Of a stretch of 64,000 nt of DNA, positions 45,629-64,000 are shown piece by piece (the stretch's first letter is position 1; each line of letters starts with the position of its first letter). Where the stretch lies: the NCBI GenBank assembly GCA_052035985.1, contig JBPOHC010000366.1, positions 1-64,000 on the forward strand, written 5' to 3'. The notes under the pieces are model-generated. The model searched no databases and was not told the origin of the DNA. It was given only the letters and a program-made list of their open reading frames with translations. Origin of the DNA: Myxococcota bacterium. GTDB lineage: Bacteria; Myxococcota_A; Polyangia; Polyangiales; Ga0077539. A program made the position numbers and the translations under genes.

Positions 45629-45702
45629 GGATCCGGAACCTCGAGAGGCAGAGGCGGCGGCTCTTACCCGTCGACGTGAGGGTTCAAGTCCCTTCGGATC
45701 TA
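45629..45702 (+). tRNA. tRNA-like, anticodon CTT (Lys) by manual fold
   Basis: Acceptor ggatccg/cggatct. Anticodon stem ggcgg/ccgtc, loop ctCTTac. T-arm gaggg-ttcaagt-ccctt. CCA encoded at 45703-05. D-region irregular. Confidence 0.4.
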
Positions 45703-45760
45703 CCAACCGCACCGCGCAGCGCGCGCTGCGGGCAACGCCTGGCACGAGGGTGTTGCGAAT

Positions 45761-45831
45761 TGCCCGATGGTCCAATGGCAAGATGGCCGGCTCTGAACTG
45801 GTTGATCCTGGTTCGAATCCAGGTCGGGCAA
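45761..45831 (+). tRNA. tRNA-Gln(CTG)-like
   Basis: Perfect acceptor tgcccga/tcgggca. U8. Anticodon loop ctCTGaa. T-arm cctgg-ttcgaat-ccagg. Weak D-stem. Confidence 0.5.
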
Positions 45832-45969
45832 CCGTCTGGCGGAGGGGGACACGTCCCCGCCACTCCGCGGATCTCTGACAACACGGGGTTGATGAGCGTC
45901 AGGCGCGACACCATGCGCGCCGCGACGCGAACGAAGGCGCCCTCCGCCACGATGAGGGAGGGCGCGCAC

Positions 45970-46042
45970 TGCGGGGTAGCTCAAAGGTAGAGCGGTCGGC
46001 TGTTAACCGGCGTCCGTGTGGGTTCGATTCCCTCCCTCGCAG
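45970..46042 (+). tRNA. tRNA-Asn(GTT)
   Basis: D-arm gctc-aaaggta-gagc. Anticodon stem gtcgg/ccggc, loop ctGTTaa. T-loop ttcgatt. 3' CCA encoded. Confidence 0.6.
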
Positions 46043-46053
46043 CCATCGTGAAC

Positions 46054-46124
46054 GGGGCCATCGTCCAAGGGGAAGATGTCTGCATGGCATGCAGGAGATG
46101 AGGGTTCGACTCCCTCTGGTTCCA
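46054..46124 (+). tRNA. tRNA-Ala(GGC)-like
   Basis: Acceptor ggggcca/tggttcc (2 G-U). Anticodon stem tctgc/gcagg, loop atGGCat. Perfect T-arm gaggg-ttcgact-ccctc. D-arm degenerate. Confidence 0.45.
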
Positions 46125-46140
46125 CTGTTTGATTCGCTTC

Positions 46141-46213
46141 GCCCATCGAGGCTGTCGGAAGAAACCGTCGGGCTACGAACTCGAAGTGCGTGGTTCAACT
46201 CCACGGATGGGCG
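46141..46213 (+). tRNA. tRNA-Arg(ACG)
   Basis: Perfect acceptor gcccatc/gatgggc. Anticodon stem tcggg/ctcga, loop ctACGaa. T-arm cgtgg-ttcaact-ccacg. CCA encoded. Confidence 0.6.
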
Positions 46214-46220
46214 CCAGTAT

Positions 46221-46293
46221 CAGCGTGTAGCTCAGTCAGAAGAGCGCCTGCTTCGGGAGCAGGAGGCCGCGGGGGCAGGTCCCGCCTCGCTGA
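46221..46293 (+). tRNA. tRNA-Pro(CGG)-like with non-canonical T-loop
   Basis: Canonical D-arm tagctcagtcagaagagc. Anticodon stem cctgc/gcagg, loop ttCGGga (G37). T-stem gcggg/cccgc but T-loop ggcaggt lacks TTC. Confidence 0.45.
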
Positions 46294-46324
46294 CCGCGTC
46301 GCAAGACGCTTCGCCTCGCATCAC

Positions 46325-46397
46325 GGCCCTGTCGTCTAGAGGTTCAAGATCGCTGGCCCTCAACCAGCAGAGGCGGGTTCGAGTCCCGTCAGGGTCG
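46325..46397 (+). tRNA. tRNA-Glu(CTC)-like
   Basis: Acceptor ggccctg/cagggtc. Anticodon stem gctgg/ccagc, loop ccCTCaa (C at 33). T-arm gcggg-ttcgagt-cccgt. Confidence 0.5.
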
Positions 46398-46410
46398 CCG
46401 TTTCAGCATC

Positions 46411-46483
46411 GCGGACGTAGTGTTCAACAGCAGCACATCGCGGCCCCATCGCGAGAGCTCGGGTGCAAATCCCGACGTCCGCA
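46411..46483 (+). tRNA. tRNA-Gly(CCC)-like
   Basis: Perfect acceptor gcggacg/cgtccgc. Anticodon stem tcgcg/cgcga, loop gcCCCat. T-arm tcggg-tgcaaat-cccga. Confidence 0.5.
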
Positions 46484-46534
46484 CCGGAGCGCGCACGCGG
46501 CGCCGTCCAAGCCGAGCGTTGCGCATTCCATCAA

Positions 46535-46606
46535 GGTCCCGTCGTTCAACGGATAGGACAGCCGATTGTCGATCGGCCAACGCGGGTTCGATTCCCGTCG
46601 GGACCG
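46535..46606 (+). tRNA. tRNA-Asp(GTC)
   Basis: Acceptor ggtcccg/cgggacc. D-arm gttc-aacggata-ggac. Anticodon stem gccga/tcggc, loop ttGTCga. T-arm gcggg-ttcgatt-cccgt. Confidence 0.7.
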
Positions 46607-46622
46607 CCTTCTGTCTCTCTCT

Positions 46623-46695
46623 GCCCATCGAGGCTGTCGGAAGAAACCATCGGGTGGCGAACCCGAAATGCGTGGTTCAACTCCACGGATGGGCG
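46623..46695 (+). tRNA. tRNA-like Arg paralogue with aberrant anticodon loop (possible pseudo-tRNA)
   Basis: Near-identical to 46141..46213 in acceptor, D- and T-arms, but anticodon loop is tgGCGaa (G at position 33). Confidence 0.35.
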
Positions 46696-46713
46696 CTCTC
46701 TGCCTCTCGCCTC

Positions 46714-46786
46714 GACCCTGTCATCTAACGGCTCAGGATGCCTGGTTCTCAGCCAGATCATACGGGTTCGAATCCCGTCAGGGTCG
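46714..46786 (+). tRNA. tRNA-Glu(CTC)
   Basis: Perfect acceptor gaccctg/cagggtc. Anticodon loop ttCTCag with U33. T-arm acggg-ttcgaat-cccgt. Confidence 0.6.
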
Positions 46787-46802
46787 CCGCCTCACCGCCT
46801 CT

Positions 46803-46875
46803 GCGGACGTAGTGTTCAACAGCAGCACCTCACAGTGCCATCGTGAGAGATCGGGTGCAAATCCCGACGCCCGCA
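46803..46875 (+). tRNA. tRNA-Gly(GCC)
   Basis: Paralogue of 46411..46483. Anticodon stem tcaca/cgtga (4 bp), loop gtGCCat (U33, A37). T-arm tcggg-tgcaaat-cccga. Confidence 0.6.
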
Positions 46876-46893
46876 CCGCTTCTGCGCCTCTCT

Positions 46894-46966
46894 GGTCCTG
46901 TCGTTCAGTGGTCTAGGACGGCCGATTGTCGATCGGTCAACGCGGGTTCGATTCCCGTCGGGACCG
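46894..46966 (+). tRNA. tRNA-Asp(GTC), second copy
   Basis: Paralogue of 46535..46606. Anticodon stem gccga/tcggt, loop ttGTCga. Identical 3' flank cgccttctgtc. Confidence 0.65.
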
Positions 46967-46986
46967 CCTTCTGTCACTGCCTTCTT

Positions 46987-47055
46987 CGTGGTCCGATCAG
47001 CATCGAGCCCTGTCTTACAAACAAGGCGAACCGGGGGCGGCACCCGGGGCCACGA
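46987..47055 (+). tRNA. tRNA-like, anticodon TAC (Val), reduced D-arm, non-canonical T-loop
   Basis: Acceptor cgtggtc/ggccacg. Anticodon loop ctTACaa. T-stem ccggg/cccgg with loop ggcggca. CCA encoded at 47056-58. Only 69 nt. Confidence 0.3.
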
Positions 47056-47059
47056 CCAT

Positions 47060-47132
47060 CAGTGTGTAGCTCAGCCAGGAGAGCGCCGGTTCGGGGGACC
47101 GGAGGCCGCGGGGGCGGAACCCGCCACACTGA
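47060..47132 (+). tRNA. tRNA-Pro(GGG)-like with non-canonical T-loop
   Basis: Perfect acceptor cagtgtg/cacactg. D-arm gctc-agccagga-gagc. Anticodon stem ccggt/accgg, loop tcGGGgg. T-loop ggcggaa. CCA encoded. Confidence 0.45.
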
Positions 47133-47145
47133 CCACTCTCCTCAT

Positions 47146-47216
47146 GGGGCGGTAGTTCAACGGTAGAACGCCTGACTGTGGCCCAGGCAATATGGGTTCG
47201 ATTCCCGTCCGTCCCT
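47146..47216 (+). tRNA. tRNA-His(GTG)-like
   Basis: Acceptor ggggcgg/ccgtccc. Perfect D-arm gttc-aacggta-gaac. Anticodon loop ctGTGgc. T-arm atggg-ttcgatt-cccgt. Confidence 0.5.
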
Positions 47217-47246
47217 CTGTTTTCAAAGCACTTCACAGCCTCTCAT

Positions 47247-47319
47247 GGCCCTGTCGTCTAATGGTAGAAGATCGCGGATTTTCACCCCGCGGACACGGGT
47301 TCGATTCCCGTCAGGGCTG
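47247..47319 (+). tRNA. tRNA-Glu(TTC)
   Basis: Acceptor ggccctg/cagggct. Anticodon loop ttTTCac (canonical Glu loop). T-arm acggg-ttcgatt-cccgt. CCA encoded at 47320-22. Confidence 0.65.
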
Positions 47320-47332
47320 CCATGAATCGCTT

Positions 47333-47403
47333 GCGGGTATGGTGTAGCAGCAGCACCGGTGGCCTCCGCCCACCATGCGCGGGTGCGAATCCCGCTGCCC
47401 GCT
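47333..47403 (+). tRNA. tRNA-Gly(TCC)-like
   Basis: Acceptor gcgggta/tgcccgc. Perfect anticodon stem ggtgg/ccacc, loop ccTCCgc. T-arm gcggg-tgcgaat-cccgc. Confidence 0.5.
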
Positions 47404-47517
47404 CCGTCTGATCGTCGACCCCGTCATCACGCCGCCCCCAATTCGTAGATAGCGACGTACCCGTCTCGTACACGGGCCAGTGCCGTGCAAGTCGGCATGG
47501 GGGCTCTACGTCACCGC

Positions 47518-55910: not shown

Positions 55911-56795
55911 GTGCGCGCCCTCCCACTCGTGCTCTCGATCCTGGTGACCTCGCTCCCGACGGCGGCCTCCGCGCAGGACGCCGGCGCCGTCGACGCGCCG
56001 ACCGTGAACCCCATGGGCGTGGTGATGGCCGCGCGCGGCGCCGCGACGCCGATCTTCAGCCACACGCGGAGGCATCGGCGCGCGCAGACCTTCGAAGAGA
56101 CCCTTCGGATGCCCGTGGTGCGAGGCCGCTGCTACGAGGCGCTCGGCTACGCGACGGGGGCCGCGCCCGTGTTCGCGCAGGTGGTCGCGGGCCACGCGCG
56201 CGTCGGAGACTCGCTCGCCATGACCAACTCCGTCGGCCGCGTCGTGCGGCAGCGCTTCTGCGCGACGGAGCCCGCGGAGCTCTACGGCATGGAGCTCCAC
56301 GCCGAGGGAGACTCGTGGTGGTACCTCGTCGTGGTGCCCACGGACGCCGTCGCGGACGCGGGTGTGACGGCGCGGGCTGCGACCGCCCCCGTCGACGCGG
56401 GGCGCGTGTCGACGACGCCCGTGAGGCGCTTCCCCGTGGGCGGCGGAGACGACTACGTCGCGCGGCAGATTCAGGGCTTCGCGAGGCAGCGCCCGGGCGT
56501 CGAGGGCGTGACCGAGACCGTGCGCGTGACGCTCCCCACGAACGGCGCGTACGAGGGCGCGGTGGGCATCCCCACGGGGCGCTGCGTTCACGTCGTGGCG
56601 GCGGGCGTCCCGAGCGTGGCCGACCTCGTCGTCGAGCTCGAAGACCCCGCGGGCCACCGCGTCGCGCAAGACGCCACGCGCCGCAACGTCGAGAGCGTGC
56701 GCCACTGCGCCTCGTACGCTGGGACGTTTCGCATGCGCGTGCGGGTGTTCTCGGGCGCCGGGCTCGTGGGCGTGCAGGCGCTCCTCGAGCCGTAG
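55911..56795 (+). CDS. secreted hypothetical protein (294 aa)
   Basis: Signal peptide MRALPLVLSILVTSLPTAASAQ with protein-like composition. The overlapping 600-aa ORFs on both strands are R-rich. Confidence 0.5.
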   Translation: MRALPLVLSILVTSLPTAASAQDAGAVDAPTVNPMGVVMAARGAATPIFSHTRRHRRAQTFEETLRMPVVRGRCYEALGYATGAAPVFAQVVAGHARVGDSLAMTNSVGRVVRQRFCATEPAELYGMELHAEGDSWWYLVVVPTDAVADAGVTARAATAPVDAGRVSTTPVRRFPVGGGDDYVARQIQGFARQRPGVEGVTETVRVTLPTNGAYEGAVGIPTGRCVHVVAAGVPSVADLVVELEDPAGHRVAQDATRRNVESVRHCASYAGTFRMRVRVFSGAGLVGVQALLEP

Positions 56796-56821: not shown

Positions 56822-57682
56822 TCAGTCCTTGCCGCGCTCGCCGGGCGGCCGCGCAGACGCCTGTCGACCGTGGGTCGCTCGCGTGGGACGTCGCCGCGGG
56901 ACCCTCCGCGCGCGCACGCCCTCGCGGCACTGGTTGTCTCCGTCGGGGCACTCGATGCGGACGTGAAAGTGGTTGTCGTGCGGCGACACCCTGCGCGGTT
57001 GCAGGAGCGTGAGCGCCGCCTCGTTGATCACCGACGAGGCCACGCCGTGCTCCCGCGCGTACGCGAGGAGCCGCGTGCGAAGCGGCGCGGAGATGAAGAT
57101 CCGCTCGACGCCCACCCTGCGCTCGGTGAGCAGCGACTCGAGGAGGGCCCAGTTTCGCGCCGTGTCGAAGACGTAGCGCCCGTCGAGCGAGCGGCCGTTG
57201 GCGTCGAAGGACACGTAGTCGTCGAGCTCGACGGACGCGCCCGGTCCGCGGGAGGTCCAGAGGCGCGCGTAGAAGCCCACGTCGGCGTCGCGGCCGCTCT
57301 GGTGCGAGCGGTGATGCCCGATGGGGCCGCCGTGCTCGGCGGAGAGATCCCCCACGGTGATCCGGACGCCGAAGCGTCGGCGCATCGAGGCTCCGACGCG
57401 TTCGAGCAGCGCGACGAGCTCCTCGGTGCCCCAGTGGAGGACGCGCCCGGGCATGAAGCGCACGCCGTCGCCCTCGGCGAGGTGACGCCCGTGGACGAGC
57501 GTCCCGCTGTTGGCCCAACCCAGCGACGCGCTCGGAGGGAGGCGCGGGCGAGACTGCCTCCGCTGGGCTGCCCTCCCGCGCGCCCGAGGGGCTTCGCCGT
57601 GAGTCTGCGCTTCGACGGAGGCGCCGAGCAGCAACGCCGCGAGCGCCGTGACCCAACCCAACGTCCGTGAAAAGGTCCGCAC
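56822..57682 (-). CDS. mepA: penicillin-insensitive murein endopeptidase MepA (peptidase M74)
   Basis: HHRSHQSGRDADV...HDNHFHVRI Zn-binding motifs. Signal peptide. GTG start. Confidence 0.8.
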   Translation of the reverse strand: MRTFSRTLGWVTALAALLLGASVEAQTHGEAPRARGRAAQRRQSRPRLPPSASLGWANSGTLVHGRHLAEGDGVRFMPGRVLHWGTEELVALLERVGASMRRRFGVRITVGDLSAEHGGPIGHHRSHQSGRDADVGFYARLWTSRGPGASVELDDYVSFDANGRSLDGRYVFDTARNWALLESLLTERRVGVERIFISAPLRTRLLAYAREHGVASSVINEAALTLLQPRRVSPHDNHFHVRIECPDGDNQCREGVRARRVPRRRPTRATHGRQASARPPGERGKD

Positions 57683-57752
57683 GGGGTAGACGCACTAGCA
57701 GAAGGGCTCTGACGCTCTCCAGTCTTCGACAAGGTACAAGACATTTGACAGG

Positions 57753-57769
57753 CTGCGCGAGCGTTCAGT
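57753..57769 (+). promoter_or_regulatory. candidate LexA (SOS) box ctgcgcgagcGTTCAGt upstream of lexA
   Basis: 14/17 match to the delta-proteobacterial CTRHAMRYBYGTTCAGS consensus (recalled from memory). A TTGACA hexamer sits 3 bp upstream (57745-50). Confidence 0.3.
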
Positions 57770-57825
57770 AGCGTACCGATCTCCACGCGCCGGAGAGGCG
57801 TGTAGAAGGGAAACCCGCGAGGCGT

Positions 57826-58533
57826 ATGCAACCACTCACCGAGCGTCAGGAAGCGATCCTCGAGTTCATCCGCCATTCGATCCGCGAGCGGGGCTATCCC
57901 CCCACGCTGCGCGAGATCGGAGCGCAGATGAACATCCGATCCACCAACGGCGTGAGCGATCACCTCCGCGCGCTGGAGCGCAAGGGCTACCTCCGCCGCG
58001 AGGACATGAAGTCTCGCGCGCTGCGCCCCACGACGCCCGACGCGCGCGTGCGTGTGGTCGACGGCGACGGCGAGGAGCCCGCGTACGACATCCACCTCGA
58101 CAACGAGCCCGCGAACAACGTGATGAACATCCCCCTCGTCGGCCGCGTGGCCGCGGGGCCGCTCACCTTCGCTGCGCAGAACGTCGAGCAGCAGATCATG
58201 ATGGACCCGTCGCTCCTCCGCGGTGCGTCGGGGGGCGAGACCTTCGCGCTGCGCGTCCGCGGCGACGCGATGATCGAGGCCGGCATCCACGAGGGAGACA
58301 TTCTCTTCGTGCGCCGTCAGGAGGCCGCGAACCGCGCCGAGATCGTCGTGGCGCTCGTGGGCGACGAGGCCACGGTGAAGCGCTACTTCCCCGAGCGCGA
58401 TCACATCCGTCTTCAGCCTGAGAACAAGCGCCTCGCGCCGATCTACGTGCGTCGCACGGAGCTCAACGGCTTCCGCATCCTGGGCGTGGTGGTGGGCCTC
58501 TTTCGCTCGGTGACCTCGCTCAAGGCGACCTGA
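57826..58533 (+). CDS. lexA: LexA-family repressor (S24 peptidase fold) with Ala replacing the catalytic Ser (GDAM instead of G-x-S-M)
   Basis: N-terminal winged HTH LTERQEAILEFI...GYPPTLREIG. Cleavage-site AAG present. VRGDAMIEAGI where E. coli has VSGMSMKDIGI. Lys dyad partner VKRY present. Confidence 0.85.
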   Translation: MQPLTERQEAILEFIRHSIRERGYPPTLREIGAQMNIRSTNGVSDHLRALERKGYLRREDMKSRALRPTTPDARVRVVDGDGEEPAYDIHLDNEPANNVMNIPLVGRVAAGPLTFAAQNVEQQIMMDPSLLRGASGGETFALRVRGDAMIEAGIHEGDILFVRRQEAANRAEIVVALVGDEATVKRYFPERDHIRLQPENKRLAPIYVRRTELNGFRILGVVVGLFRSVTSLKAT

Positions 58534-59201
58534 TGTTCGTGCCGCTGCTCGTCGGCTCCGCGCTCGCGGGGGCGGCCACGGTGGGCGGCCTCGTGCAGCA
58601 CTACAAGCGACAGCTCGGCCCCATGACGCTCGCCGACGTGCGGGCGCTCACCACCCTCGAACCCACGCCCATCGCCCTCTGCCGCGAGGGCCTCGTGAAG
58701 ATCGTCGGCACCCTCGGCTGCGACACGCCCGAGCGCAGCCTCTACGGCGACGCGCTCGTGGCCGTCCGCGAGGTGCGCCACTACGCCACCGAGGGCCGAG
58801 GCGCCGCTGCGACGCGCGTGCTCTCCCGCGTCGACCGATCGAGCGCGCCCTTCTGGATCGAAGACGACTCCGGCCGCATCAGCCTCGACCCGCTCGCGGC
58901 GCGCATCGACTACGAGCTCGACGAGACCGAGCTCGAGCCCATGATCGAAGAGCTGCGTCTGCGCCTGGGAGAGCGCGTCGTCGTGCTCGGTGACGCGCGT
59001 CGCGAGGTGACCGTCTCGCATCACCCCATGCGTCGCTCGGCCGTGCAGACCGAGCGGGGGCTGCACTTCATCGCGCCGCCGCTGGTGACCTGGCGAACGG
59101 AGCCCGAGGTGTATCCGAAGCTGCTGCCGCCCGCGGGCTCGGCGGCGCTCTCTGCGAGCACCGTCGCGCTCGCCGTGCTCGGCGCGCTGCTGCGGCTGTA
59201 G
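58533..59201 (+). CDS. hypothetical membrane-associated protein (222 aa), coupled to lexA (TGATG)
   Basis: N- and C-terminal hydrophobic segments. The competing minus ORF 58443..59066 looks like an artefact. Confidence 0.5.
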   Translation: MFVPLLVGSALAGAATVGGLVQHYKRQLGPMTLADVRALTTLEPTPIALCREGLVKIVGTLGCDTPERSLYGDALVAVREVRHYATEGRGAAATRVLSRVDRSSAPFWIEDDSGRISLDPLAARIDYELDETELEPMIEELRLRLGERVVVLGDARREVTVSHHPMRRSAVQTERGLHFIAPPLVTWRTEPEVYPKLLPPAGSAALSASTVALAVLGALLRL

Positions 59202-59249
59202 GGGGGAGAGAAAAGCGCGGGAGGGGATTGAGGCGGGGAGAGAGGCGCT

Positions 59250-61382
59250 TCAGGTGCCCGTGGCCGACACGTCGTCGTGCTCGTGCTCGCCGTCGTGCAT
59301 CTCGCTGTCGTTGTCGTTCTCGACGCCGGGGTGACCGCCGCGACGCGCGTCGCAGAGGTTGATCTTGTAGTGCTTGGCGCGGAGGTAGAGCGTCGAGCGC
59401 GAGATGTCGAGCGCGGTGGCGGCGCGGCGCATGTTGAAGCCCATCTGCACGAGGACGCGCTCGATGTGGGCGCGCTCGACGTCGGCGAGCGTGAGGGCCG
59501 TGGGCTCGAGGGCGCCGAGGAGCATCGCGGGGTTCTGCTGCGCGATCTGCACGGGCGTGGGGCGCTCGACGCGCGGAGGCTCGGCGGGCGCGGGCTTCGC
59601 GGCGGCGGGGCGCGGCGCCGGGGCGGGCGCTGCGATGGCGCGAGGCGCGGTGGCTTCGAGCGACTGACGCGCGCCGATGATGGCGTCGGCGGAGATGCTG
59701 TCGCCGACGCCGAGCCACGCGCGTTCGAGCACGGTGCGCAGCTCGCGGAGGTTGCCGGGCCACGTGTGCGCAGCGAGCAGCGACTCGGTCTCGGCGGGGA
59801 GCGCGGGCGCGTCGCGGCCGTACTCGCGGGCGAGGTCAGAGAGCACCGAGCGCGCGAGGTCGACGAGCTCGGTGGGGCGGTCGCGGAGCGCGGGGAGCGA
59901 GACCACGAGCGCAGAGAGCCGCTGGAGGAGGTCGCTCGAGAAGGACTTGCGGAAGGCCGCGCCGCGGAGGTCGTAGGGGCTCGTGGCGACGATCCGCACG
60001 TCGGGCGTCGCGGGCTTCACCCCGCCGACGCGGAGGAACGCGCGCGTCTCGAGGAGGTTCAGGAGCTTCGACTGCGAGCTCGGGTCGAGGGAGCCGATGT
60101 TGCGGAGCACCAGCGTGCCGCCCGCGGCCTGCTCGATGAGGCCGCGGCGCGCGCGGTCGGTCTGCGGCGCCGAGCCGGCTTCGAAGCCGAACATCACGCC
60201 GTCGAAGTCGCGCGGGGTGAGCGTCGTGCAGTCGCACTCGATGAAGGGCCCGCGGGCGCGGTCGCTCGACGCGTGGATCTCTCGCGCGACGAAGGCCTTT
60301 CCGGTGCCGCGCTCGCCGGTGATGAGCAGCGTGCAGCGCGACGTGGAGGCGAGCTCGACGACGGCCGCCGTGGCGCCGCGCTGAGAGCTCGAGCGCCGCG
60401 CGGCGTCTCCGCGCGACGAGGTCTTCGCAGAGACCCAGGCGCCGCCGACGAAGAGCGACGAGAGCGTCTCGATGAAGTGCGCGTCGGGGCGGTGACCGTG
60501 CGCGCTGTAGAACACCACCACGCCGTCGGGGTGGCCGTCGCGGCCCACGGGCACGCCCACGGCTTCAATGAGTCCCTCGGAGCGGTCGTTGAGCACGGTG
60601 CGCGCGACGGCGGCGTCTTCGCGGTCGAGCCCGTCGCTCCACTGCGGAGCGTGCGAGGCCCAGACGCGCGACGCGAGGCCCTGCGCGTTGGTGAGGGCGC
60701 CCCACCCGCGGCTGCCGTCGGGGCGCTGCGAGTACACGGCTTCGCAACGGAGGCTCTGCGAGGCGCGGTTCCACGACCAGCGGGCGGCGAGGCTCCAGCC
60801 CATGAGGGTGCAGACCTCGTTGATCACGTCGCGGAGCATCTCGGGGCGGCCGTCGTCGCGGCTCATCGCGCGGGCCACGACGCGGGCCACGGCGCGCCTG
60901 CGATCGGCCTGACGCACGTCGGTGATCTCGACCATCTGGAGCAGGGCTCCCTGCATCCCGGTGAGGGCGCAGGGCGTGAGCGAGACGGTGAACCAGCCTT
61001 CGCCGCCGCGGGGGTGGCTCGCGGCTTCGAACTCGTGGTGCGACTTCGACCCGTGGAGCACGGCGCGGAGGGACTCTCTCGCGGACTCGACGGCGGCGTG
61101 ATCGAAGCCCATCCCGCGACCGCAGGCGTGGGCGAAGCTGATTCCGACGGGCTCGCCGTGGTGCTCGGTGCGCTCGGCGAGGGCGCGCTTCCACGCGGCG
61201 TTGACCCAGCGCACGGTGCCCTTCGCGTCGATGACCGCGGCGGGAGACGGGAGCGCTTCGAGGGATGACCAGCGGGTCCGATCGGCCGTGGGGAGCGGGG
61301 TCTCGGGCTCCTGGGCACGCTCACCAGCGAAGCCCTCATACTCAGCCGCGGTCGCCGAACCCTCGTTGAAGATCATGGACAT
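59250..61382 (-). CDS. PAS/GAF-containing NtrC-family (bEBP-like) regulator with degenerate GAFTGA motif and Fis-type HTH
   Basis: AAA+ core LLITGERGTGKAFVAREIH...GGTLVLRNIGSLD. The sigma-54 contact motif is replaced by FGFEAGSAP. C-terminal MRRAATALDISRSTLYLRAKHYKI. ATG 61382 preceded by GGAGGG. Confidence 0.75.
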   Translation of the reverse strand: MSMIFNEGSATAAEYEGFAGERAQEPETPLPTADRTRWSSLEALPSPAAVIDAKGTVRWVNAAWKRALAERTEHHGEPVGISFAHACGRGMGFDHAAVESARESLRAVLHGSKSHHEFEAASHPRGGEGWFTVSLTPCALTGMQGALLQMVEITDVRQADRRRAVARVVARAMSRDDGRPEMLRDVINEVCTLMGWSLAARWSWNRASQSLRCEAVYSQRPDGSRGWGALTNAQGLASRVWASHAPQWSDGLDREDAAVARTVLNDRSEGLIEAVGVPVGRDGHPDGVVVFYSAHGHRPDAHFIETLSSLFVGGAWVSAKTSSRGDAARRSSSQRGATAAVVELASTSRCTLLITGERGTGKAFVAREIHASSDRARGPFIECDCTTLTPRDFDGVMFGFEAGSAPQTDRARRGLIEQAAGGTLVLRNIGSLDPSSQSKLLNLLETRAFLRVGGVKPATPDVRIVATSPYDLRGAAFRKSFSSDLLQRLSALVVSLPALRDRPTELVDLARSVLSDLAREYGRDAPALPAETESLLAAHTWPGNLRELRTVLERAWLGVGDSISADAIIGARQSLEATAPRAIAAPAPAPRPAAAKPAPAEPPRVERPTPVQIAQQNPAMLLGALEPTALTLADVERAHIERVLVQMGFNMRRAATALDISRSTLYLRAKHYKINLCDARRGGHPGVENDNDSEMHDGEHEHDDVSATGT

Positions 61383-62117: not shown

Positions 62118-64000
62118 ATGACAGCGACGCGGAGCGACCTCGTGATCGGCGTCGCCGGTCACATCGACCACGGCAAGACCGCGCTCGTACGCGCCCTCAC
62201 GGGCGTCGACACCGATCGCCTCCCCGAGGAGAAGGCCCGCGGGATCACCATCGAGCTCGGCTTCGCGCCCCTCGCGCTCCCCAACGGACGTCGCGCGGCC
62301 GTGATCGACATGCCCGGTCACGAGCGCTTCGTTCGAACCATGATCTCGGGCGCAGGCGGCGTCGACGTGATGCTCCTCGTGATCGCCGCGAACGAAGGGG
62401 TGATGCCGCAGACGCGTGAGCACCTCGCCATCGCGGGGCTCGTGGGCGTTCGCGCGGGCGTGTGCGCGCTCACCAAGTGCGACCTCGCCTCGCCCGACAT
62501 CGTGGAGCTCGCCTCGGATGAAGTCCGCGAGGTGCTCGTGGGGAGCGCGCTCGAAGGCGCGTCGGTGATTCCCGTGAGCGCCCTCGCAGGGACGGGGATC
62601 GAAGCCCTTCGAAAGGCTCTCGGTGCGGTGTCGCTCCCGCCGAGGGATTCGAGCGGACCGGCGCTCCTCCCCATCGATCGCGTGTTCGTACGCAAGGGCT
62701 TCGGCGTGGTGGTCACGGGCACGCTGCTCTCGGGCGTGGTGCGTCTCGATGATGCGCTTTTGCTCGGCCCCATCGGCCCCGATCACCGCGCGGTGCCCGT
62801 GCGTGTGCGCGGGCTTCAGGTGCACGGAGAGGCCGCCACGGAGGTCCACGCAGGGACGCGCCTCGCGGTGAACCTCGCGGGCGTCGAAGTGGCGGACGTT
62901 CCGCGCGGCGCGTGGCTGATGCATCCGACCGACGTGGCGCTCTCGCGGGTCTTCGACGCGACGGTCACCTCGCTCCCGCAGACGAAGCGCGACATGCTCC
63001 GCCGCGCGAAGCTCGAGGTCGACGTGGGCGCCACGCACGCCCTCGCCACGCTCTCGTTTCTCAACGGTGAGGGACTCGCGCCGGGCAAGACCGCGCTCGC
63101 GCGCGTGACCACCGATCGTCCGCTCGCGCTGCGTCCGGGGGAGCGTCTCGTGCTCCGCGGACCTCCTTCGCTCGCTGGTGTTGGAAGCACCGTGGGTGGG
63201 CTCACGGTGGTGCGTCCCGTGGCGGAGCGCGTTCGTCGAAGGGCCGTCGCGCTCGATCGCGCGCAGCGGAGCGCGGCGGGCTCTCTCGCAGATCGCGCGA
63301 GGGTCGAGCTCGACGCCGTGGGCCTCCGCGGACTCTCGCGCGCGGAGCTCGTGGCGCGCGCGGGCTACAGGGTTTCGAAGTCATCGACGGGTGACGGTGT
63401 GGTCTCCGTCGCGAACGATCGCTACGTGTCTCGCACTGCGCTCGACGCGGTCTCTCGCGAGGTGCTCCAGACGCTCAGTGACTTTCACGGGAAGAACCCC
63501 GCGGAGCGAGGCATCGATCGTCGCGCGCTCTCGTCGCTCGGCGATGACGCCGCGGTCGACCTCGTCGTCGCGGAGCTCGTCTCACAGAGCAAGATCACGC
63601 GTACCGGCGAGGTGATCGCGCGGGCGGGGTGGAAGCCGCGAGGGCTCGATGATGTTCCCTTCGTGGCGCAGGTGCGGGCCATGCTCGCGCGCGCGGGTCT
63701 CGCGACGCCGCGTATCGCGGAGATGTCCGAGGCGTGCGGCGCGACCGTGAAGGAGATCGAGCACGCCCTCAAGCGACTCACCGAGCTCGGTCACGTGGTG
63801 AAGGTCTCGACCGAGCTCTACACCGACGCCGCCGCCATGAAGGACCTCGAAGCGCGACTCGTCGCGTGGCTCGAAGCGAAGGGCTCCATCGACGCGCAGG
63901 GCTACAAAGACCTCACGGGGCTCACGCGCAAGTACGTGATCCCCTACGCCGAGCACTTCGACGCGAAGAAGGTCACGCTGCGCCTCGGCGACACGCGCAA
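62118..64000 (+). CDS. selB: selenocysteine-specific translation elongation factor SelB (3' end beyond window)
   Basis: [16 protein letters not shown]...ITIELGFA...DMPGHERF...TKCD G-domain motifs. Domains II-III follow, then winged-helix C-terminal domains. No stop before the window end. Confidence 0.85.

Follow-up and report, generated by a model that had tools for sequence, protein, structure and literature searches.

LexA, its Ser-Lys dyad and the uncleavable phenotype of the S119A protein are textbook knowledge, and Slilaty and Little are said to have reported in 1987 the classical Ind- phenotype, in which S119A LexA stays uncleaved. The E. coli S119A allele, whose structure has been solved (1JHH), is engineered. 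A natural LexA homologue without the nucleophilic serine is sll1626 of Synechocystis sp. PCC 6803, in which the Ala-Gly site and the serine are both missing as a fixed trait (PMC1524924), and whose regulon is changed and not damage-inducible. Within the Myxococcota, the LexA of M. xanthus has the catalytic serine, is autoregulated and uses an imperfectly palindromic operator that ends in GTTCAG. The lexA gene of M. xanthus can be deleted with retention of viability, about five genes are directly under LexA, most UV-induced genes are LexA-independent, and the LexA box follows the motif CTRHAMRYBYGTTCAGS (PMC9705874).

Here we analyzed a lexA gene in a 64-kb stretch of DNA from the same phylum, referred to as the window at its full length. 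The coding sequence lies at 57826..58533 on the + strand and encodes 235 amino acids, and its assignment comes from Pfam, NCBIfam and PDB alignments. In the Pfam search of the 235-aa ORF, residues 1-65 match the LexA DNA-binding domain (PF01726 LexA_DNA_bind, 95.4 bits) and residues 103-223 match the S24 peptidase domain (PF00717 Peptidase_S24, 99.5 bits). In the NCBIfam search, the full-length protein scores 203.7 bits with the LexA equivalog TIGR00498, for which the cutoff is 110.95. The N-terminal winged helix-turn-helix is present, its residues aligning to 1LEA and 1JHH, and the C-terminal part has the S24 peptidase fold with a score above the equivalog cutoff, so that both halves place the protein in LexA by descent. 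HMMER alignments to solved LexA structures, including T. maritima 3K2Z, E. coli 1JHH and 7B5G and others, have E values of about 1e-32, and the close homologues are all annotated or recognizable as LexA of Polyangiales and other Myxococcota. The host is an uncultured soil-type myxobacterium, and the gene is its normal DNA-damage repressor lexA. A tblastn search finds no second lexA and no other S24 gene within the 64-kb window.

The surroundings of the active site align without gaps to three solved LexA proteins. The window residues R-V-R-G-D-A-M fall on R-V-S-G-M-S-M of E. coli, and the GDAM motif containing Ala148 lies on E. coli GMSM (Ser119) and on T. maritima GESM, with no gaps nearby. 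Ala148 also pairs Ala-on-Ala with 1JHH, the structure of the E. coli LexA S119A mutant. The codon at the nucleophile position (58267..58269, + strand) is GCG, with G at 58267 where every relative has T, and the serine nucleophile of the self-cleaving LexA/S24 peptidases is thus replaced by Ala148 in the window. The other parts of the cleavage apparatus are present. The codons of the Ala110-Gly111 self-cleavage bond (E. coli A84-G85), which belongs to the linker-proximal strand, lie at 58153..58158 (+ strand), and the codon of Lys185 within VKRY, the general base of the Ser-Lys dyad (E. coli K156), lies at 58378..58380 (+ strand); both the bond and the lysine are invariant in all 80 species representatives. 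The preliminary description had listed the N-terminal HTH, the Ala-Gly cleavage site and the dyad lysine as LexA hallmarks and had read Ala (gcg) at the nucleophile position of GDAM; the Pfam and NCBIfam matches and the alignments agree with the former, and the HMMER alignments to solved LexA together with a MAFFT alignment agree with the latter. Its discriminating base, 58269, was off by two, since the G versus T difference is at 58267, the first base of the codon.

We compared the window protein with its homologues in a collection of 5.8 billion proteins and aligned the 120 best matches with MAFFT. All 120 have serine in the nucleophile column. The top match, P0001, is identical to the window protein at 234 of 235 residues, with S148A as the sole difference. 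Six contigs (L001-L006), each from a different sample or assembly, encode P0001, and their DNA is 97.3-99.4% identical to the window. The T->G change at 58267 is the only non-synonymous difference between the lexA genes of these contigs and that of the window; the other differences, 1-8 per contig, are all synonymous, and lexA of L001 is identical to the window at 707 of 708 nt. The GTDB species representative 'Polyangiales bacterium STL-MYX7' (L007), for whose MAG a literature search found nothing, has TCG at codon 148 and differs from the window lexA by 14 synonymous and 2 non-synonymous changes (A117S and S148A). A contig from an eighth sample (L163, SRR23073215) starts six bases before codon 148 and reads TCG. 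Taken together, TCG (Ser) is present in 8 of 8 independent conspecific contigs with 94-99% DNA identity to the window, and Ser, Lys and Ala-Gly are all kept in the 80 related GTDB species representatives. T also occupies the variable base in all 66 metagenome contigs from JGI that were matched by the flanking 32-mer, in which the site itself was set to N.

A public NCBI record (P0121, on a single 68,462-bp contig) contains precisely this Ala protein, so that the Ala is to be ascribed to that assembly. Serine stands at position 148 in all four other members of the 90% cluster of P0121. In these metagenomic data singletons at conserved residues recur; P0124, in the same 90% cluster, has a single-contig G106C change at a second conserved LexA position, within PLVGRVAAG. 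Judged from the sequences compared, Ala148 is a one-base singleton on a canonical lexA, not a trait of the species or the lineage and not a new kind of LexA, and the locus is very probably a canonical lexA that represses itself, from an uncultured species of Polyangiales (Myxococcota), with the Ala as a singleton of one assembly. The comparisons made gave no counter-evidence to the LexA assignment or to the singleton status. As a biological type, the 'LexA homologue lacking the catalytic serine' of the preliminary description does not hold up, with TCG in every conspecific contig and Ala in no relative.

Upstream of the gene, a -35-like hexamer TTGACA (57745..57750, + strand), the TTGAC of which is conserved, is followed by the candidate LexA operator or SOS box CTGCGCGAGCGTTCAG (57753..57768, + strand), which has a conserved core. 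The operator abuts a putative -10-like hexamer TAGCGT (57769..57774, + strand; family consensus TAnnnT). The candidate operator thus sits between the -35 and -10-like elements in a module spanning 57745-57774; its right half-site, GTTCAG, is perfect and its left half-site, CTGCGC, is degenerate, the two being separated by GAGC. A generic sigma-70 scan missed TAGCGT because only 3 of 6 TATAAT positions match. The M. xanthus box matches the window site at 14 of 17 positions on the + strand and at 15 of 17 on the - strand, and no other site in the 64-kb window matches it as well. Across the 64 kb, the composite TTGAC-N13-GTTCAGTA is found a single time, with an expectation of 0.00.

We then took 80 related lexA genes (L007-L086) and aligned their upstream regions, anchored on GTTCAG. 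The motif is found within about 130 nt of the start in 72 of the 80 regions, and these 72 comprise 69 distinct sequences. In these 69 promoters, neither GTTCAG nor the C located five bases before it varies, and the invariant C-N4-G is the core of a GAAC-N4-GTTC-like palindrome. TTGAC stands at a fixed 12-13 nt upstream of GTTCAG with 1.4-1.7 bits per position, and the TA and the final T of the -10-like hexamer, directly downstream of GTTCAG, are conserved as well. Phylogenetic footprinting thus supports the candidate SOS box that had been noted earlier upstream of the gene as a conserved motif, with its core kept across the 69 distinct Polyangiales lexA promoters, and LexA would be expected to bind it. 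Polyangiales lexA promoters share the arrangement TTGAC-N12/13-GTTCAG-TAnnnT; many species have the full GAAC-N4-GTTC palindrome, which is Cheo-box-like, and the clade of the window keeps only the right half-site of the palindrome.

By analogy with the family, a LexA dimer would bind CTGCGC-N4-GTTCAG in its own promoter, where the site is flanked by the -35 and -10 elements. Upon DNA damage, RecA filaments (RecA*) would stimulate cleavage of the Ala110-Gly111 bond by Ser148/Lys185 in the Ser allele of the species, and the cleavage would relieve the repression of lexA, of the overlapping downstream gene orf222 and of the other members of the regulon, which is probably small; orf222 would come under LexA repression through the TGATG stop/start overlap. 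In the assembly of the window, the nucleophile codon TCG is changed to GCG by one T->G transversion, at 58267. As written, the Ala148 protein would be expected to fold, dimerize and bind DNA with no self-cleavage, as a LexA(Ind-) super-repressor, and self-cleavage, whether RecA*-stimulated or at alkaline pH, is predicted to be absent from the Ala allele on the basis of the known S119A phenotype.

The likeness to E. coli LexA S119A is close. The two share the domain architecture, the Ala-Gly bond, the lysine, the Ala at the nucleophile position and the TCG->GCG codon change, and the window protein is predicted to share operator binding without inactivation by RecA*. They differ in origin, in that the E. 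coli allele was engineered, whereas the window allele is a putative one in a public environmental Polyangiales assembly. The window also resembles M. xanthus in phylum, in its probable autoregulation and in the ending of the candidate operator, with 14-15 of 17 box positions matched, but differs from it in the catalytic residue, in the degenerate left half-site (CTGCGC) of its clade and in the overlapping downstream orf222, which is specific to the near clade of the window. The Synechocystis protein is alike in being a natural LexA homologue without the serine (PMC1524924), whereas its Ala-Gly site is also missing, its state is fixed in the lineage, and the window is one base away from the fully canonical allele of its species.

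The preliminary description had offered a non-cleavable repressor or a sequencing error. Non-cleavage of the Ala protein follows, as a prediction, from S119A biochemistry, and the comparative data narrow the choice between the two without deciding it. We rate as an even chance that the metagenome assembly is wrong at 58267, through a consensus or base-call error, and that the organism has TCG (Ser) and a normal inducible LexA. One base differs, at a residue that does not vary among the other sequences examined, and lexA is otherwise under strong purifying selection, with no other amino acid change relative to the six conspecific contigs and a synonymous to non-synonymous ratio of 14:2 relative to L007. 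The G106C change of P0124, also a single-contig variant at a conserved site in the same cluster, argues in the same direction, as does the proportion of transversions, which make up 4 of the 5 substitutions private to the window relative to all available strains. TCG->GCG is found in 0 of 2,239 E. coli genomes that share the K-12 haplotype of the stretch, which also points to noise but is a weak baseline from finished genomes, and the 94-nt stretch at E. coli S119 is too polymorphic for a site-resolved count.

Against an error stands the audit of the assembly. Compared with L001 and L002, 21 substitutions and a 5-bp intergenic deletion are private to the window between 54923 and 64000, and these 9 kb show no private frameshift. 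Synonymous changes number 13 among the 21 substitutions, non-synonymous ones 5 and intergenic ones 3, and the 13:5 ratio of synonymous to non-synonymous changes is the mark that purifying selection leaves on truly diverged sequence, not that of random error. The pattern of private changes and the lack of a frameshift indicate that the window is a genuine, slightly distinct strain with a locally clean assembly. T>G or A>C changes account for 5 of the 21, and 3 of these are non-synonymous. An Illumina-like T->G error signature was considered and dropped, because T>G occurs 68 times and the reverse class 68 times over 602 differences from the conspecific long contig, so that there is no global T->G asymmetry. 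Substitution errors are also rare in consensus sequences built from short reads. The RmlC and Hsp20 regions (about 5.5 kb) contain only one window-private substitution, which is too few to inform, and a guessed YchF product gave no exact match in the private-allele audit. As an order-of-magnitude estimate, a consensus error at a given base is about as probable as a young mutation reaching consensus at a selectively filtered site.

The closest strains add a finer comparison. The strains in SRR34217583 and SRR34217589, whose contigs match the window in other parts at 99.7-100% identity, lack the private alleles of the window at 56720, 57555 and 59195. Strains nearly identical to the window also occur in SRR11674038 and SRR28161541. 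The contigs of the nearest strains either read TCG or end short of codon 148, which speaks against a real mutation. Relative to four sequences over 57684-60474, the private differences of the window are 58267 T>G, 59195 T>G (synonymous), a loss of 5 bp at 59205 and 59213 G>A. The last three lie close together (59195-59213), at the 3' end of orf222 and in the intergenic region that follows, and even the near-identical SRR34217589 strain has none of them. The Logan contigs of SRR34217589 (L164) and SRR34217583 (L166) end at 57736 and resume at 58366, leaving codon 148 uncovered, and this break flanks the 5' two-thirds of lexA in both independent assemblies.

The 1.36-Mb conspecific contig (L001/L153, GCA_964268295.1) has features of its own. 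It carries a private 1-bp insertion at the equivalent of window position 63092, which splits selB into two calls of 417 and 221 aa, and it differs from the window by many small indels, with 74-86 gap openings per 16-20 kb, all of which suggests an error-prone long-read assembly.

Set against the error reading, and at a little under an even chance, the G at 58267 may be a real, recent, strain-level lexA(Ind-) mutation, with lexA, orf222 and the genes with LexA boxes staying repressed after damage. The window strain is a distinct lineage with private, mostly synonymous substitutions of its own, so private real mutations are expected in it, and the locally clean assembly speaks for the base as written. 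Tolerance of such an allele is explicable, since the damage response of myxobacteria is mostly LexA-independent, and the allele might even have been selected. The viability of the M. xanthus lexA deletion and its few direct targets (PMC9705874) are consistent with a modest cost of the Ind- state; with so few LexA-dependent genes in M. xanthus, an Ind- allele may be only mildly harmful in this phylum, and a real Ala148 mutation would most likely be mildly deleterious. A LexA without the serine also exists in nature, in Synechocystis (PMC1524924). However, the Ala allele is present on one contig only and is absent from eight other conspecific samples and from any relative, at a residue that is invariant elsewhere. 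There is also no operator decay and no further substitution hinting at a settled new role, the gene being identical to L001 at 707 of 708 nt. A stronger form of the same reading, in which the G is no artifact and one environmental Polyangiales population has as its majority genotype a strain that is naturally SOS-uninducible (lexA Ind-), perhaps under selection, we regard as unlikely. If it were true, a locked LexA regulon might block a costly damage-induced function, such as orf222, a dnaE2-type mutasome or a LexA-controlled prophage.

The two remaining explanations fare far worse. A non-cleavable LexA-like regulator of the Synechocystis type, evolved at the level of the lineage for an SOS-independent role, has only the Ala itself in its favor and is highly improbable, since the conspecifics and the 80 related species representatives all keep Ser, Lys and Ala-Gly, the cleavage site and lysine of the window protein are intact, the operator and promoter are conserved, and S148A is the sole difference from P0001, the Ser allele of the species. 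With Ala in one contig only, the residue loss is not fixed in a lineage, and this explanation was excluded. A register shift or an alternative nucleophile (another Ser, Thr or Cys) with which the protein would still cleave itself has hardly any chance of being right and no supporting point was found for it, as Ala148 lies on the nucleophile in the gap-free alignments to three solved LexA proteins and in the same column of the MAFFT alignment with 120 homologues, the conspecific protein differs solely by Ser at that position, and the FALRVRGDAMIEAGIHEGD segment, the 19 residues surrounding Ala148, contains no Ser, Thr or Cys, so that a shift of register cannot rescue a nucleophile; the possibility of such a shift, raised earlier, is thus answered by the alignment with related LexA proteins.

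As it stands, the locus has little significance, being textbook LexA biology with an unusual residue that is a one-contig singleton. If the reads were to confirm the G, the strain would rank among the rare documented examples of wild bacteria with a catalytically dead SOS repressor, and a real allele would be a natural experiment on the dispensability of LexA-dependent induction in Myxococcota, where the damage response is mostly LexA-independent. For metagenome-assembled genomes more generally, a substitution of a catalytic residue should be compared with conspecific contigs before it is given a biological reading.

The genes around lexA were also examined. An M74 murein endopeptidase gene lies upstream and divergent (56822-57682, - strand). 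Downstream, the ATG of orf222 (58533..59201, + strand, an ORF call) overlaps the lexA stop codon as TGATG, and orf222 is probably co-transcribed with lexA. Its product has hydrophobic N- and C-terminal segments and gives no Pfam, NCBIfam or PDB sequence match. Conservation of the gene directly after lexA is confined to the near clade, L007-L015, with 56-98% identity, and Polyangiaceae and Sorangium do not show it. The gene may encode a clade-specific, LexA-controlled membrane protein. Next come a PAS/GAF sigma-54 activator gene (59250-61382, - strand) and selB (from 62142, + strand). Elsewhere in the window, 15 tRNA genes lie within 1.9 kb (45629-47506, + strand), among them duplicates for Glu-CTC (two copies) and Asp-GTC (two copies) and two tRNA-Arg genes. 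The matching stretch of L153 (15044-17980) is without called protein genes, and 11 of the 15 tRNA genes of the array are confirmed by Rfam.
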